From: Alistipes sp.
GTDB lineage: Bacteria > Bacteroidota > Bacteroidia > Bacteroidales > Rikenellaceae
Reading direction: 5' to 3'
Assembly: GCA_045654345.1 (NCBI GenBank)
Contig: JAZOND010000027.1
Coordinates: 19,889-83,888, forward strand
DNA length: 64,000 bases
Both the position numbers and the translations under genes were made by a program. The notes under the pieces are model-generated. The model searched no databases, was not told the DNA's origin, and saw nothing but the letters and a program-made list of their open reading frames with translations. Each line of letters opens with the position of its first letter. Within the stretch, counting starts at the first letter, position 1. This document shows positions 12,725 to 28,239 of this stretch, in pieces.

Positions 12725-12911
12725 AAGGCGAGCCAACGCTCGGCTAAATACGAAATGGACTATGCACATTCCTTGCACCACCCCATTTTATCTTCAGAGT
12801 GCGGTAGTAGGTGTGCATCGTAAAAAATCCCCAGATGGGACATACTAAGCGTATTTCCCATTTGGGGATTTGAGGGATGTGCAGCTAATGCCGCACTATC
12901 ACGATAAAATG
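12725..12911 (+). repeat. Structured dispersed repeat, copy 1 (128-nt long-hairpin core 12784-12911)
   Basis: Long imperfect inverted repeat homologous to 25352-25535. Shared blocks include CAACGCTCGGC, TGCACCAC, TCAGAGTG, GTGCATCGT, AGGGATGTG, CACTATCACG. Confidence 0.85.
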
Positions 12912-19571: not shown

Positions 19572-20162
19572 ATGTACGAATATATTACAGGAAAACTTGC
19601 AGAAATAGCACCCGCCTATGCCATTATCGAGGCTGGGGGCGTGGGATACTTTATAAATATATCGCTGCAGACATATTCCGAGATTGAACACAACGAGCAG
19701 GCTATGCTCTATACCCACTATATTGTGCGCGAGGATGCGCATATCCTCTACGGCTTTGCCACTAAGGCAGAGCGCGAGCTGTTCCGACTGCTTATAGGCG
19801 TGTCGGGCGTGGGTGGCAATACGGCGCGAATGATTCAGTCTACTTACTCACCCGCAGAGCTGCGCAATATCATCGGCACGGGCAATGCCGTACTGCTCAA
19901 AAATGTCAAGGGATTAGGACTCAAGACTGCGCAGAAAATCATCGTCGAGCTGAGTGGCAAGATGATTGACCTCAAGACCGACGACAAGATAGCCGGCAAG
20001 GTAGATGTATCTGATAATGAAACCTTTAGCGAGGCACTCTCGGCACTCGTTATGCTCGGCTTCCAAAAGACCGCATCAGAAAAAGTCCTCAAAAAGCTAT
20101 TCAAAGAAAACCCCGATTTACGCGTCGAGGAGGCCATCCGCTTGGCCTTAAAGCAGCTGTAA
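19572..20162 (+). CDS. ruvA: Holliday junction branch migration protein RuvA
   Basis: IEAGGVGY, VREDAHILYGF, VSGVGG, VKGLGLKTAQKIIVEL, EALSALVMLGF. Confidence 0.96.
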   Translation: MYEYITGKLAEIAPAYAIIEAGGVGYFINISLQTYSEIEHNEQAMLYTHYIVREDAHILYGFATKAERELFRLLIGVSGVGGNTARMIQSTYSPAELRNIIGTGNAVLLKNVKGLGLKTAQKIIVELSGKMIDLKTDDKIAGKVDVSDNETFSEALSALVMLGFQKTASEKVLKKLFKENPDLRVEEAIRLALKQL

Positions 20163-20170
20163 TAGCCAAC

Positions 20171-20238
20171 AGCCAATAGCGCGCACAGCAGATAAAAGTA
20201 ACGAGCGTTACTTTTATCTGCTGTGCGCGCTGCTGGCT
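20171..20238. repeat. Long perfect palindrome (26-bp arms, 2-nt loop); may also act as terminator
   Basis: 20178-20203 is the exact reverse complement of 20206-20231; imperfect extension to 20171/20238. Confidence 0.9.
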
Positions 20239-20253
20239 AAAATCATAGAATGA

Positions 20254-20285
20254 TTTGGAATTTACCGCAATAATTATTATCTTTG
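20254..20285 (+). promoter_or_regulatory. Promoter for the FKBP lipoprotein pair
   Basis: TTTG (20254-57), 20 nt spacer, TATCTTTG (20278-85). Confidence 0.7.
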
Positions 20286-20299
20286 CGCGTTATATGGCT

Positions 20300-20905
20300 A
20301 TGAAACGAGGTTTATATTGCGTGGTTATAATGGTGGCTGCTATATTGTGCGGCTGCTCGAAGGATGAGGATATGCTCACGAAGCAGAAGGATAGCATCGT
20401 GAAGTATCTTACATCTACACGCCGTATGGTTGACGAGCAGGAGGTTAGCAGTGTATTGGAGGAGAATCCTGCCTTCTACACCAACTTTAACAACTCGGCA
20501 TACCGACACATTGTCAACTACTACGAGGCTGACCGTCACGAGTGGGTCGAGGTGGAGCCAAACAGCATTATCGACATACAGTTTAACGCCTACTCTTTTA
20601 CGGGTTCGGAGCCGCAGATAAAGGATATGTATTGGTCTAACATTCAGGCATCTATATCGGCTGTGGAGGCGAGCAACAACCACACTTACGACAAGTTGAT
20701 ATGGAAGGCAGAGCCGCTGACCGTAAGGCTTGGTCGTGGAGAGGTGCTTGAGGGACTTGAGGCGGCGTTGGTAGGCTGCAGAGATCAGGACTCGGTGCAG
20801 GTATACATCACCTCGAATGCCGCATATGGCAAGCAGGCGATAGGTTCTGTGGCCAAGAACAGCTCTGTGGCGTGGTATATTAAGATTTTAAGTGTTTCAA
20901 AATAG
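20300..20905 (+). CDS. FKBP-type peptidyl-prolyl isomerase-like lipoprotein
   Basis: Lipobox LCGC; C-terminal LGRGEVLEGLEAALVG...YITSNAAYG...VAWYIKIL. Start is ATG 20294 or 20300. Confidence 0.75.
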   Translation: MKRGLYCVVIMVAAILCGCSKDEDMLTKQKDSIVKYLTSTRRMVDEQEVSSVLEENPAFYTNFNNSAYRHIVNYYEADRHEWVEVEPNSIIDIQFNAYSFTGSEPQIKDMYWSNIQASISAVEASNNHTYDKLIWKAEPLTVRLGRGEVLEGLEAALVGCRDQDSVQVYITSNAAYGKQAIGSVAKNSSVAWYIKILSVSK

Positions 20906-22619: not shown

Positions 22620-25094
22620 ATGAAAAAACCTATTTTACTACTTATTTTGGCTGTGCTATCACTTCCGTTATCGGCGCAGTACAAGGTCACCGAGCAGCAC
22701 AAGCAGCGTGCCGCCGAGGTTGTTAAGCAGATGACCCTTGAGGAGAAGATTGACTACATCGCAGGCTATGAGCGATGGTATATCCGCGCCATAGACCGTC
22801 TTGGTCTGCCTGCTGTGCGTATGGCTGACGGCCCGCAGGGTGTGCGCAACAACACCAAGAGTACCCTCTACCCTTCAGGTATTGCTGCAGCGGCAACTTG
22901 GGACACAGAGCTGATAAATCAGATGGGACTCTCGCTGGGTAAGGATGCCCGTGCGCGTGGTGTGCATATTCTGCTCGGCCCTGGTGCCAACATATACCGT
23001 TCACCACTCTGTGGTCGCAACTTCGAGTACTTTGGCGAGGATCCTTTCCTTGCTGGTGAGGTTGCAAGCGCATATATTAAAGGTGTGCAGAGTATGGGCG
23101 TAATGGCCTGCATCAAGCACTTTGCAGGTAACAATCAGGAGTGGGCTCGCCATAGCGTATCGACAGATGTTGACGAGCGTACCCTCAACGAGATATACTT
23201 CCCAGCCTTCGAGAAGGCGGTCAAAGAGGCCAATGTAGCCTCTATTATGACCTCTTACAACCTGCTCAATGGCCAGCACGCCTCTGAGAGCCGATATCTC
23301 AATCAGCAGGTGCTGCGTGGTCAGTGGGACTTTGATGGCTTTGTGATGTCGGATTGGACATCTTGCTACTCGCCTGTGAATGTTATCCGCTGGGGTGTTG
23401 ACCTTGAGATGCCTCTTGCCGAGTGTCTTAAGCCTGAGCTTATCAAGCAGCTTATAGAGCAGGGCGTTCTTGACGAGCGTTCACTCGATGTTAAGTGTCA
23501 GAATATCATCCAGAACATCTTCGCCTTCGAGTTCGACAAGCGCGAGCAGTTAGACAGCACCCTGCCACAGAACAACCCTGAGTGCGACGCTGTGGCACAT
23601 AAGCTCTCGCAGTCAGCAGTGGTTATGCTCAAGAATGAGGGCAACTTCCTGCCGTTCAAGAAGGGTAAGGTTGTTGTCTGCGGCCCTAATGCCGACAAGA
23701 TTGTCACAGGTGGCGGTAGCGGCTTTGTAACTCCGCTATTCTCATACTCTGTGGCTGAGGGAATGTCAAATATCGACAAGCGCATTAAGACTACAGTCAT
23801 CTCTAAGAACACCCTCACCCACCTCGAGGACAGCTTTGCTGATGAGGCGATGACCACTGCAGGCGTCTATGCCGAGTACTACGACAACGATCAGCTGCAG
23901 GGAGCACCTAAGCACACCTTTGTTACCGATAAGGTGGCTATTCGCACCGATGCTATCGAGGCTCACGAGGATCTTGTTATGGAGGGCATATCTACCCGTC
24001 ACACCTTCTACTACAAGCCTAAGAAGGATGAGAACTACGATATGATGGTCAGCAGCAACGACGGCTTCCGCCTCTTTATCAACGACAAAAAGATTGCCGA
24101 CACTTGGGGCAGAGACTCTGGACAGAGTGGTTTTACAAATCTTAGCCTCAAGGCAGACAATGTATATAAGTTCGTTGTCGAGCACCACAATATGTCAGGC
24201 CGCATTGCGCTGGGACTTACTTTCGATGTGCCACCAACAGACGATATGCAGAATGTAGAGCTGTTCCGCAATGCCGACTGCATTGTTGCCTGCCTCGGCT
24301 TTGACAGCTATACCGAGAAGGAGAACTCAGACCGCACCTTCACCCTGCCTCCAGGACAGTTAGCATATCTAAAGTCGATACTCAAGATTAACAATAATGT
24401 GGTGGTTGTGCTCAATGGCGGTGGTGCTATGGAGATGACTCCGTGGATTGACGATGTTAAGGCTGTGCTTATGGCGTGGTACCCTGGTCAGCAGGGAGGT
24501 CTTGCAATCTCGGAGATTATCACAGGTAAAATCTCTCCATCAGGCAAGCTGCCTATCTCTATCGAGGCCCGCCTGGAGGATAACCCGTGCTATCATAACT
24601 ACCACGAGAATGTTGACCGCGTACGCTCACACGCCATCAACCCACACCCACGCGTAGAGTACCGTGAGGGTATCTTTATGGGCTACCGTGGCTACGATAA
24701 GAGTGGTATCAAGCCTCTGTTCCCATTCGGATATGGACTGAGCTATACCACCTTCAACTACTCGAACCTCTCAATCGCCCAGCAGGGTGATAAGTACGCC
24801 GTATGCTTCGATATTACCAACACAGGTAAGGTCGCAGCTGCCGAGGTTGCTCAGGTATATGTTCACGATAACGAGTGCTCACTCATCCGCCCTGCTAAGG
24901 AGCTTAAGGGCTTCAGTAAGGTATACCTCAAGGCTGGAGAGACTCGACGCGTAACCGTAGAGCTCGATGATGAGGCCTTTAGATTCTTCGACCCTATCCA
25001 CCGCAAGTTCGTCGTAGAGCCAGGTGCCTTTACCATCTTCGTGGGCGCATCCTCTGCCGATATCCGCCTGACAGGAGAGCTAAGCGTGAAATAG
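22620..25094 (+). CDS. GH3 beta-glucosidase with PA14 insert and Fn3-like C-terminus
   Basis: MADGPQGVR, GRNFEYFGEDP, IKHFAGN, nucleophile MSDW, WYPGQQGG, FPFGYGLSYT. Confidence 0.92.
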   Translation: MKKPILLLILAVLSLPLSAQYKVTEQHKQRAAEVVKQMTLEEKIDYIAGYERWYIRAIDRLGLPAVRMADGPQGVRNNTKSTLYPSGIAAAATWDTELINQMGLSLGKDARARGVHILLGPGANIYRSPLCGRNFEYFGEDPFLAGEVASAYIKGVQSMGVMACIKHFAGNNQEWARHSVSTDVDERTLNEIYFPAFEKAVKEANVASIMTSYNLLNGQHASESRYLNQQVLRGQWDFDGFVMSDWTSCYSPVNVIRWGVDLEMPLAECLKPELIKQLIEQGVLDERSLDVKCQNIIQNIFAFEFDKREQLDSTLPQNNPECDAVAHKLSQSAVVMLKNEGNFLPFKKGKVVVCGPNADKIVTGGGSGFVTPLFSYSVAEGMSNIDKRIKTTVISKNTLTHLEDSFADEAMTTAGVYAEYYDNDQLQGAPKHTFVTDKVAIRTDAIEAHEDLVMEGISTRHTFYYKPKKDENYDMMVSSNDGFRLFINDKKIADTWGRDSGQSGFTNLSLKADNVYKFVVEHHNMSGRIALGLTFDVPPTDDMQNVELFRNADCIVACLGFDSYTEKENSDRTFTLPPGQLAYLKSILKINNNVVVVLNGGGAMEMTPWIDDVKAVLMAWYPGQQGGLAISEIITGKISPSGKLPISIEARLEDNPCYHNYHENVDRVRSHAINPHPRVEYREGIFMGYRGYDKSGIKPLFPFGYGLSYTTFNYSNLSIAQQGDKYAVCFDITNTGKVAAAEVAQVYVHDNECSLIRPAKELKGFSKVYLKAGETRRVTVELDDEAFRFFDPIHRKFVVEPGAFTIFVGASSADIRLTGELSVK

Positions 25095-25111
25095 CCTACA
25101 GCTATTCAATA

Positions 25112-25158
25112 AAATAGAGCTTACACTTTCAAGCTTGCTTGAGTGTAGGCTCTATTTA
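25112..25158 (+). terminator. Intrinsic terminator of GH3 gene
   Basis: AAATAGAGCTTACACT ... AGTGTAGGCTCTATTT hairpin with T-rich tail. Confidence 0.75.
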
Positions 25159-25292
25159 TTATACTTGGTATAACAAAAGTGGAACTTGGTCGCAAATTCC
25201 ATTTGCTACGATGTGTGCGCAATAATCGGGTTTCCTTGCTAACGCAGAACAACACTAAAGCCAGACTTTTGCACTATTATCCATTCTTCGTA

Positions 25293-25424
25293 CACAATTT
25301 GGCGTCAGAGTCTACACGATGAGTATTATCTGCACTTAAAAACTAACTTTTAAGCGAGGATTTTCAACGCTCGGCATAGAAAACAGCGAAGGGCTGTATG
25401 TGCACCACAATTTGGCGTCAGAGT
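25293..25424 (+). repeat. 19-bp exact direct repeat CACAATTTGGCGTCAGAGT
   Basis: Copies at 25293-25311 and 25406-25424; the second is the left end of the structured element. Confidence 0.85.
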
Positions 25425-25535
25425 GGTGTAGTTGCGGTGCATCGTGAAAAAAAGCAGCGACGGATAGTACAAGAAGTACAGCCGTCGCTGATATTTAAGG
25501 GATGTGACGCAAATGCGCCACTATCACGCCAAATT
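25352..25535 (+). repeat. Structured dispersed repeat, copy 2 (127-nt long-hairpin core 25409-25535)
   Basis: Same stem register and length as 12784-12911 with compensatory substitutions; right arm overlaps the rubrerythrin stop codon. Confidence 0.85.
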
Positions 25536-26085
25536 ATTTAAAGTAGCGGTTGTAGAGCCCCTCAAAACCCTTTCCGTGACGAGCCTCATCCTTAGCCATC
25601 TCGTGAACGGTGTCGTGTACGGCGTCGAGGTTCTGCTCCTTAGCCATACGAGCAAGACGGAACTTATCCTCACAAGCACCACTCTCGGCGTTCATACGCT
25701 TGAACAGGTTGGTCTTAGTATCCCAAACTACCTCACCGAGGAGCTCTGCAAACTTTGCAGCGTGCTCTGCCTCCTCCCAAGCGTAACGCTTGTAAGCCTC
25801 AGCAATCTCAGGATAGCCCTCACGGTCTGCCTGACGGCTCATAGCAAGGTACATACCTACCTCGGTGCACTCACCCATAAAGTGGTTCTTAAGACCCTCA
25901 AGCAACTCCGGGCTTGAACCAAGACCATCACCAAGAACATGCTCGGTAGCAAACTCGAGGTTACCGCTCTGCTCCTCAATCTCTACAAACTTATCAGCAG
26001 GAACCTTACAAAGAGGACAACGCTCAGGAGCCTCATTTCCCTCGTGAATATAACCACAAACTGTGCAACGAAATTTCTTATTCAT
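25534..26085 (-). CDS. rbr: Reverse rubrerythrin (N-terminal rubredoxin + ferritin-like diiron domain)
   Basis: CTVCGY..CPLC, then [36 protein letters not shown]. Confidence 0.9.
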
Positions 26086-27175: not shown

Positions 27176-28153
27176 TTACTTAAGGTTCTCAAGAGCAGCC
27201 TTAGCAGCCTCAACGCTACCACCAGCAGTAACCTTCTGGAGGTAAGATACAGCCTTATCCTTAAGAGCAGCGTCGGTGTTACCACCAGCGTTGTACTTAG
27301 CGTTGTAAGCAGCACCGATGATGAAGTATACATCGCTCTGACCATCCTCAGTAGTCTGTGCAAGAGCAGCAGTCTCACCAAGCTCGATAACCTTAGCGTA
27401 GTCCTTCTTGTTGTTGTAAGCCTGGAGACGAATCTTCTCAGCAAGTGCAGATGCAGGATCTGTAGCAAGCATAGACTCAGCCATAGCGATGATACCGTCC
27501 TGATCACCAGCCTGCTGGAGACGAGCAACCTCGTTATTGGTGTACATAGCCATCTTCTCCTTAGCCTCAGCGATAGCCTCAGCATACTTAGTTGCGTTCA
27601 TACCGCAGATGTTAGTACAAACATCCATACCCTTCTGGTACTCACCGAGCTTAAAGTAGCTCTCAGCAAGGTTGAGTGCCATACCTGTATTACGCTTGTT
27701 TGCAGCATAGCCCTTCTCAAATACAGCTACAGCAGCAGCGTAGTCGCCAGCGTTGAACGCCTCACCACCCTGAGCCTGGTAAACCTTAGCCAGAATCTGG
27801 TTAGCCTTAGTCTTTGCAGTGCTATCGCCCCAAAGCTCAGCCTTCTCAGCAGCAGTTGAGAGGTACTTAACAGCCTCGTCCCACTTCTTTGCACCGGCAG
27901 CAGCAGTACCCAGACGCTGGTAGCAAGTAGGGATATACTTCTTTGAAGTAGCTACAAGGCTGAGAACATTGCTATCCTCAGAGTCCACACCGCCCTTAAC
28001 AACAGACTCGAAGTTCTCAAGAGCCTTTGTCCAATTCTTTGCCTGAAGAGCAGCAGCTGCCTCGTTGTACTTAGCAGTAATCTCGCTTGCGCTCTGTGCC
28101 GATACCATTGCAACAGAGAACAATGCAACAGCCATCAAAACAAGTTTTTTCAT
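27176..28153 (-). CDS. Secreted tetratricopeptide-repeat protein
   Basis: Signal peptide MKKLVLMAVALFSVAMVSA; Ala-rich TPR helices; strongly biased codon usage. Confidence 0.75.
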   Translation of the reverse strand: MKKLVLMAVALFSVAMVSAQSASEITAKYNEAAAALQAKNWTKALENFESVVKGGVDSEDSNVLSLVATSKKYIPTCYQRLGTAAAGAKKWDEAVKYLSTAAEKAELWGDSTAKTKANQILAKVYQAQGGEAFNAGDYAAAVAVFEKGYAANKRNTGMALNLAESYFKLGEYQKGMDVCTNICGMNATKYAEAIAEAKEKMAMYTNNEVARLQQAGDQDGIIAMAESMLATDPASALAEKIRLQAYNNKKDYAKVIELGETAALAQTTEDGQSDVYFIIGAAYNAKYNAGGNTDAALKDKAVSYLQKVTAGGSVEAAKAALENLK

Positions 28154-28169
28154 AGTTGAAATCAGTAAT

Positions 28170-28202
28170 TTATTAAGTTTTTATTAAGTTTTTATTAAGT
28201 TT
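28170..28202 (-). repeat. 3 x 11-bp exact tandem repeat (AAACTTAATAA on the coding strand) in a 5' leader
   Basis: TTATTAAGTTT at 28170, 28181 and 28192. Confidence 0.9.
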
Positions 28203-28239
28203 AAATTTTGTTCTTTGCTTAAAAAAGCCCAACAAGCTG

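Follow-up and report, generated by a model that had tools for sequence, protein, structure and literature searches.

The rubrerythrin gene of this Alistipes assembly lies on the minus strand of the window, that is, the whole stretch of 64,000 nucleotides that was analysed. It encodes 183 amino acids (25534..26085; ORF list, Pfam PF21349 (RUBY_RBDX) and PF02915 (Rubrerythrin)). Its TAA stop codon (25534-25536) is met by a full foldback unit of 126 nt, gene-sense on the minus strand, which was delimited at 25409..25535 by its inverted repeat, nhmmer, a covariance model and folds. The end of its right arm (25527-25535) shares 2 nt with the TAA, and the overlap described in an earlier note on this DNA was thus confirmed. 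The unit carries a type-A middle module and the outer stem TTTGGCG/CGCCAAA. It corresponds to the nhmmer match C27:45298-45421 with 98 bits and to a covariance-model match with 103 bits. Its arms (25409-25443 and 25501-25535) measure 35 nt each and form an imperfect palindrome with 77% complementarity; the outermost 9-10 nt (AATTTGGCG / CGCCAAATT) pair perfectly.

Read in the direction of the gene, the 5' arm (25501..25533, minus strand; from sequence) starts right after the TAA with TTT-GGCG-TGA-TAG and provides two back-up stops, TGA (25524-25526) and TAG (25521-25523). ORFs in other copies of the family terminate on the same TGA of the 5' arm. A nested hairpin resembling an intrinsic terminator was recognised at 25447..25491 on the minus strand from sequence, inverted repeat and folds. 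In this hairpin, GCAGCGACGG (25454-25463) pairs with CCGTCGCTG (25482-25490) below the apex GTAC-N5-GTAC. Seven T residues (25447-25453) follow on the minus strand, and a strong T-run is found on the gene strand only. The 3' arm (...CTCTGACGCCAAATT; 25409..25443, minus strand; sequence and inverted repeat) lies past the terminator and is therefore missing from terminated transcripts. The whole unit folded with -65.3 kcal/mol on the plus strand (z = -9.9) and with -55.5 kcal/mol on the minus strand (z = -8.0). Outside the element, the convergent GH3 beta-glucosidase gene (22620-25094; Pfam GH3) is followed on the plus strand by an ordinary terminator hairpin at 25112..25157, detected by inverted repeat and terminator scan.

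Further layers were observed on the minus strand with increasing distance from the rubrerythrin stop. The full unit (25535-25409) is followed by the start of a conserved tail (GTGGTGCA, 25408-25401; tail consensus and alignment), which is truncated by relic 1 (25400-25312). Alignment to three full type-B units showed that relic 1 is what remains of the 3' half of an older unit of this type. It starts at the hairpin apex (CATACAGCCCTTCGCTGTTTT...) and contains a degenerate 3' arm and a tail; the terminator scan reported a half-hairpin within it at 25383-25397. Relic 2 (25311-25262; direct repeat and alignment) consists of a bare 3'-arm end (25294-25311) and its tail (25262-25293). An exact direct repeat of 19 nt (25293-25311 = 25406-25424) is spaced by 113 nt, because the arm end of relic 2 lies within this repeat of 25406-25424. 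Given one full unit and two relics at a single stop, at least three generations have occupied the rubrerythrin stop codon.

Copy 1 of the same family (12784..12911, minus strand; repeat searches and Pfam) follows a TPR gene downstream of gyrA. It abuts the TAG of this gene (12912-14), in agreement with its earlier placement at that stop. Its outer stem is TTTTATC/GATAAAA and its terminator module differs from that of the rubrerythrin unit. The start of the rubrerythrin element had been set at 25352 and had to be moved to 25409, since 25352-25408 resembles the flank of copy 1 only via older relics. The likeness to the left of both copies comes from relics in either flank, which derive from older units of another subfamily. 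A third copy on the same contig (C27:93564-93689) lies outside the window. The 18-mer ACAATTTGGCGTCAGAGT occurs three times (two exact, one with 3 mismatches), compared to 0.04 expected occurrences at up to 3 mismatches. This excess and the 72 loci in the genome exclude a chance origin of the repeat similarity. The feature at the rubrerythrin gene is best explained as one full copy of an Alistipes/Rikenellaceae foldback DNA repeat together with two decayed older copies.

Other repeats were noticed as well. Runs of a GCYAAYRGC nonamer (GCCAATGGCTAATAGC...) form a second short repeat at about 15 sites in the own genome (e.g. C1:121459, C16:3693 and C23:40235). They are often preceded by a TATCCGCnnnGCGGATR hairpin, and several are located just downstream of foldback units and upstream of the next gene. 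The window holds only a weak match at 20165-20180. A palindrome at 20171-20238 with 33-nt arms, 94% complementarity and a 2-nt loop lies between the plus-strand ORFs 19572-20162 and 20255-20905, and its left arm overlaps the GCCAAYAGC motif. At 28169-28212, three tandem copies of the 11-mer TTTATTAAGTT are situated just upstream (minus strand) of an ORF ending at 28153.

The family comprises 72 loci at 57 sites of the own 2.1-Mb assembly (28 contigs), 42 of them full length, as determined by BLAST and iterated nhmmer. The sister species G014 (Alistipes sp. RGIG4013) carries at least 146 copies. On the gene strand, the stop codon is followed by the 5' arm with TTTT-NNNN-TGATAG..., by the terminator hairpin with the apex GTAC-N5-GTAC and T5-7, by the 3' arm ending in ...CTCTGAC-N'N'N'N'-AAAA and by a tail of ~28 nt. 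The consensus antisense to the gene reads (A)TTTT-NNNN-TCAGAG..GTAG.., module A or B, an A-run, the terminator stem, the GTAC-N5-GTAC apex, the second stem strand, the partner module and CTATCA-N'N'N'N'-AAAA. The tail RGTGCAAGGAATnnnCGGnGTGCAAAC with its two GTGCA boxes is present after most units; inspected by eye for a Bacteroidetes promoter (TTTG ... TAnnTTTG), it gave no consistent match.

Units are mosaics that draw on outer tetranucleotides (GTTG, ATCG, GGCG, CTCG), on two kinds of middle module and on terminator modules of at least three kinds, each of which always pairs with its own partner. At the arm tips, only TTTT/AAAA is invariant and the next 4 nt covary. In an alignment of 41 sequences, 85% of the paired cells were complementary, compared to 70% in shuffles and ~45% with slid partners, and 35 out of 46 base pairs showed changes on both sides. 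The closest copies at non-paralogous loci are 94-98% identical, and what they share is the 126-nt unit, in some cases together with the tail. A search of Rfam 15 gave no family match at gathering thresholds over the whole window and only chance matches of at most 19 bits at E <= 10 for 25080-25600; a tRNA/tmRNA search yielded none either. Four units at paralogous loci (C4:69446, C15:7050, C20:8507 and C22:73624) are alike in their tail, in a promoter box of the TAnnTTTG type (TATATTTG) and in how the downstream gene starts (ATGAAGCGA...). Thus, some copies were multiplied by segmental duplication and not by transposition. Several copies are found close to contig ends (C2, C6, C13, C20), at distances of no more than a few hundred bases, which suggests that the repeat breaks the assembly there.

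Concerning their position, the copies are docked on stop codons. The stop of a long ORF was located within a few nt in 44 of the 56 copies with an intact gene-proximal end, and in 28 of these at offset 0 (TTTT directly after the stop). ORFs open for at least 80 codons were counted, and the gene calls were crude longest-ORF calls. Most of the exceptions are second units of tandem arrays. At 80 loci of other Alistipes/Rikenellaceae genomes, 74 out of 107 copies were docked, 36 of them at offset 0 and 7 with the ORF ending on the TGA of the element itself (positions 9-11). The targeted insertion that the earlier note had proposed is therefore supported by most of the 57 sites and by these other genomes, and the positional bias of further copies towards stop codons, whose absence the note had named as a refutation, is present. 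Stop usage behind elements equals genome usage (TAA 58%, TAG 35%, TGA 7%), which fits "any stop" better than a strict sequence motif. True in-frame stops are the usual docking sites, and an out-of-frame TAG near the end of a gene or the TGA of an 11-nt stub, left by an earlier unit, is used at times; roughly 70-75% of the non-tandem copies sit on true stops. A plain 3-nt target predicts many more intergenic copies than were seen, so that an extra determinant or strong selection must be assumed.

Scars of turnover were found at these sites. In eight genuine cases, one or two 11-nt stubs (TTTTNNNNTGA) stand between the real stop and the full unit, and the new unit begins directly after the TGA of the stub. 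A stop-like triplet in non-coding DNA is thus sufficient, which argues against sensing of translation. The newer units are nearest to the stop, and older ones persist only as 5' stubs and as 3' halves from the hairpin apex. At C40:184876 of the sister species, a new unit has replaced the interior of an old one, and both ends of the latter survive, one as a stub (ATCG) and the other, downstream, as a 3'-arm relic (CGAT) with tail. The hairpin apex is regularly the starting point of downstream relics, and in one chimeric terminator halves of two modules meet at the GTAC apex; by their sequence, these junctions suggest that hairpin loops may be broken or exchanged in vivo. One ORF of the sister species (e37) crosses an out-of-frame TAG into the element and ends on the TGA of the element. 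At site e22, the empty orthologue has a native terminator that the filled one lacks. Arrays of units are arranged head-to-tail in the same orientation.

The orientation of the elements follows the replication strand, inferred here from the skew on MAG contigs. It agreed with the contig GC skew in 68 out of 72 loci (about 94%), and three of the four exceptions were partial copies with ambiguous scores. This was independent of the gene majority, as contigs with genes mostly on the other strand still follow the skew. A copy was carried by 45 out of 789 leading-strand genes and by 4 out of 665 lagging-strand genes. The coding-strand skew amounted to ~0.055 and the replication component to ~+/-0.05, and the sign of the latter matched the orientation on every element-bearing contig above 40 kb. 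On the 400-kb contig C40 of the sister species, on which the skew is negative throughout, 38 out of 39 copies have one orientation. Since orientation is locked to skew, it is invariably the lagging-strand template that contains the element's gene-sense strand.

The covariance model detected the family in 26 out of 151 Rikenellaceae genomes and in 9 out of 31 genera (23 candidates scored per genome, so that the counts are lower bounds), and many genomes of the same genus were empty. A degenerate pattern scan with one genome per species returned almost only Alistipes/Rikenellaceae MAGs, largely from ruminant guts, with few single chance matches elsewhere. Phage carriers were searched by blastn in 50,697 phage records without any match. 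Four pattern matches in IMG/VR were rejected as chance because they gave no covariance-model match.

At the rubrerythrin site, the own genome has a type-A unit with outer GGCG. On the same TAA, the sister species has a unit of another subfamily (outer GTTG, type-B), while G010 has two tandem units, G013 only a stretch like the 5' arm and a terminator, and G012, G015, G011 and others plain terminators. The C-terminus of rubrerythrin (...NRYFK*) is identical in orthologues with and without the element; thus, insertion took place after the native stop. In the comparison of rubrerythrin 3' regions that the earlier note had called for, the element is present or absent between species with the C-terminus unchanged. 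A strain-level empty site was not found, as only two other assemblies encode an identical rubrerythrin and both have the element. The only other assembly of the same species has the same unit at this site, with one SNP that turns a pair into G.U on the antisense strand. Filled and empty pairs, compared with the sister species at 80-90% identity, are too diverged to define a target duplication, and no direct repeat was seen flanking family copies. The unit L116 of another species (uncultured Alistipes SRR15429246_bin.6) and the own unit at C22:36728 are 96% identical at non-orthologous loci, in genomes which differ by 10-20%. Such identity across species hints at horizontal movement or at strong conservation of some subfamilies.

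A GC-rich hairpin with T5-7 on the gene strand is present in all copies, with a 9-10 bp stem and T7 at rubrerythrin, and the opposite strand has only a weak T-run. By sequence, this agrees with an intrinsic (Rho-independent) terminator, i.e. a GC-rich hairpin and then a U-run on the transcribed strand. Of the 57 sites, 25 have a convergent and 24 a co-directional gene next to them, with a space of 13-273 nt and room for a promoter, which fits ends of transcription units. A secondary role as terminator of the upstream gene is therefore plausible, judged from these features. An mRNA that ends at this terminator would carry the 5' arm with the hairpin and lack the 3' arm, so that the outer stem is confined to DNA, read-through or antisense RNA. 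The earlier argument that this stem can form only in read-through or opposite-strand RNA was logically right.

Given these properties, the feature is probably a non-autonomous foldback element, likely mobilised as a single strand, that homes to stop triplets and serves as a gene terminator. The element would be moved or copied as single-stranded DNA at the replication fork, with a stop-like triplet (TAA, TAG or TGA) as the presumed docking signal. Purifying selection and probably the benefit of a ready-made terminator would leave mainly copies on real stops. There, the nested hairpin and U-run would end the upstream transcript and replace the native terminator.

The shared 3'-end regulatory role that the earlier note had also proposed would correspond to a cis-acting structured 3' UTR RNA, kept by selection on RNA folding and active in antitermination, mRNA stabilisation or antisense control. 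Strong covariation and the precise placement relative to the stop, with the 5' arm within reach of the ribosome, speak in its favour. The gene-antisense strand folded better in 39 out of 42 copies by ~12 kcal/mol (mean -61.8 vs -50.0 kcal/mol), G.U pairs numbered 191 on this strand and 37 on the other, and the strain SNP adds a further one. The direction of the G.U excess is opposite to the expectation from leading-strand deamination bias. It is, however, confined to about seven inherited positions, and rare states are unbiased (22 G.U vs 17 A.C, p = 0.52), which weakens the asymmetry as proof of antisense RNA. The better fold of one strand was therefore treated as a built-in founder feature and not as proof of a functional antisense RNA. 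Against an RNA also stand the lack of any Rfam match, the 3' arm past a strong terminator and the patchy occurrence even within the genus. As primary nature of the feature, a shared regulatory RNA was not supported: a high-copy repeat occurs after unrelated genes and almost never behind lagging-strand genes, its orientation is tied not just to the gene but to the replication strand, and it forms head-to-tail arrays, stubs and decayed half relics. A regulatory RNA of this kind is thus very improbable. Dispersed single attC sites of integron type, without integrase, were considered too. Imperfect palindromes of ~126 nt right after ORFs with variable centre, conserved ends, strand asymmetry and replication-oriented bias would suit them, and these features resemble the VCR/attC sites of Vibrio. 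The ends of the units, however, do not have the RYYYAAC / GTTRRRY cores (only the GTTG variant is similar, in the wrong orientation), Rfam 15 gave no match even at E <= 10, and the copies are scattered behind housekeeping genes and not in cassette arrays. This makes an attC identity barely credible.

Mobilisation in trans by a Y1 HUH transposase (RAYT or TnpA), as for REP/REPIN or IS200/IS605-derived palindromic elements (PATEs), would explain why orientation is locked to the lagging-strand template, why units are inserted 3' of a short and specific sequence without a visible target duplication, why their ends are hairpin-based and why they cluster beside existing copies. All these features are hallmarks of Y1-mediated single-strand transposition (IS608/ISDra2). 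However, a six-frame search for the Y1 domain PF01797 gave no match in the own genome or in 11 of the 12 further genomes that carry the element (G014, G117, G105, G108, G114, G130, G172, G043, G113, G010 and G149), while controls were positive in 6 of 14 reference genomes. TnpB (PF07282) was absent from all genomes searched. The single 126-nt foldback also differs from GTAG/CGTC-tagged palindromes of 20-40 nt and from distinct left and right subterminal hairpins, and its arrays are head-to-tail and not alternating. A Y1-driven origin is accordingly held to be distinctly improbable. A classical DDE-type MITE was rejected as only TTTT/AAAA is invariant, no flanking direct repeat was seen and no multi-copy transposase ORF occurs in the MAG; an all-against-all ORF comparison returned only surface proteins, an AraC-like regulator and rubrerythrin paralogues. 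Of the known kinds compared, REP/RAYT, IS200/IS605 PATEs, DDE-type MITEs and integron attC sites each fail at least one of the defining features that were tested. Spread driven by host replication without a dedicated transposase would dispense with a helper gene: the strongly folding strand, nascent or template, would fold while single-stranded at the fork, and the polymerase would switch template at the 3-nt microhomology of a stop triplet. Elements would thereby be copied to new stop codons, or resident units would be overwritten by copy choice. The lack of Y1 transposase and TnpB fits this, as do the reverse transcriptase PF00078, whose presence or absence is independent of the element, and the lack of any long autonomous version with matched 5' and 3' ends in the 3.3 Mb searched. 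Stubs that end at position 11, where the outer stem meets the first internal loop, relics that start at the hairpin apex, mosaic modules, a resident interior that is replaceable while both ends stay and the strict lock of orientation to the replication strand point in the same direction. Yet this account is purely inferential, and we know of no case in which template switching dispersed a 126-nt unit de novo. At virgin sites, no homology accounts for the second junction, and the preference for true stops over other TAA/TAG/TGA triplets is left unexplained. Overall, it was considered unlikely. For the preferred non-autonomous element that homes to stop triplets, it is possible that a helper gene was missed through MAG incompleteness or is borne by a plasmid or phage.

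More tentatively, and with the balance against it, the family could be the Bacteroidota representative of an undescribed cross-phylum class of foldback elements. Members of this class would seek out stop triplets on the lagging-strand template, behind leading-strand genes only, bring a terminator, overwrite their predecessors and be spread by an enzyme or by hairpin-induced template switching. A full-text literature search returned no description of a stop-docked, replication-locked hairpin repeat, and a 2024 survey of MITEs makes no mention of stop codons or strand bias (PMC11602168). If these readings are true, small gut Alistipes genomes acquire and renew terminators via a mobile hairpin that senses, at the DNA level, the gene end and the direction of replication. 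A stop-triplet-specific and strand-specific integration activity would then be defined that could interest biotechnology. Such an element would account for many contig breaks in MAGs of Rikenellaceae and for false leads to a "structured RNA" there, and in fragmented assemblies it could serve as a marker of the replication strand.

No repeat family described so far (REP, ERIC, Correia, SPRITE, attC) is known to combine recognition of the gene end with that of replication direction. ERIC/IRU (127 bp) and the Correia/NEMIS foldback MITEs are imperfect palindromes that are co-transcribed with their neighbours and affect transcript ends (background in PMC3049150). They are similar to the Alistipes family in size and in the imperfect palindrome. 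They differ in their conserved terminal inverted repeats, in the TA duplications of Correia, in their occurrence in either orientation and in not being known to show stop docking or a replication-strand lock. Integron attC sites and Vibrio cholerae repeats are, like the family, imperfect palindromes of ~60-140 nt from the ORF end with conserved ends, variable covarying centres and strand-specific folding; core sites, cassette arrays, integrase context and an Rfam match are absent from the family. With REP/BIME/REPIN-RAYT systems and IS200/IS605 PATEs (background on REP/RAYT in PMC3333891), it shares hairpin-forming intergenic repeats, short-target insertion with no visible duplication, clustering and, likely, a single-strand, replication-oriented biology. 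Unlike them, it has no Y1 gene in element-rich genomes, a length of 126 nt instead of 20-40 nt, no terminal GTAG/CGTC tag, arrays in one head-to-tail orientation and a stop triplet as docking signal.

The closest functional analogue is SPRITE of S. pneumoniae, a repeat of less than 200 bp with a long stem followed by a T-rich tract and with AAAA/TTTT tips (PMC3049150). It is enriched near gene 3' ends and between convergent genes, has no established target duplication and was proposed to provide co-opted terminators (PMC3049150). Small size, the stem with T-rich tract, AAAA/TTTT tips, enrichment at 3' ends and between convergent genes, the lack of an established target duplication and the proposed use as terminator are common to both. 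AT-rich and present in 30 copies, SPRITE is from a different phylum, and the comparison is one by description and not by sequence. Its orientation is 63% leading strand and mirrors coding bias (PMC3049150), in contrast to ~94% independent of gene majority in the Alistipes family. SPRITE lies near genes and a start on the stop codon is not reported for it, whereas the Alistipes family is docked on stops. Unlike SPRITE, the Alistipes family is further characterised by modular covarying stems, stubs and the layering of relics.
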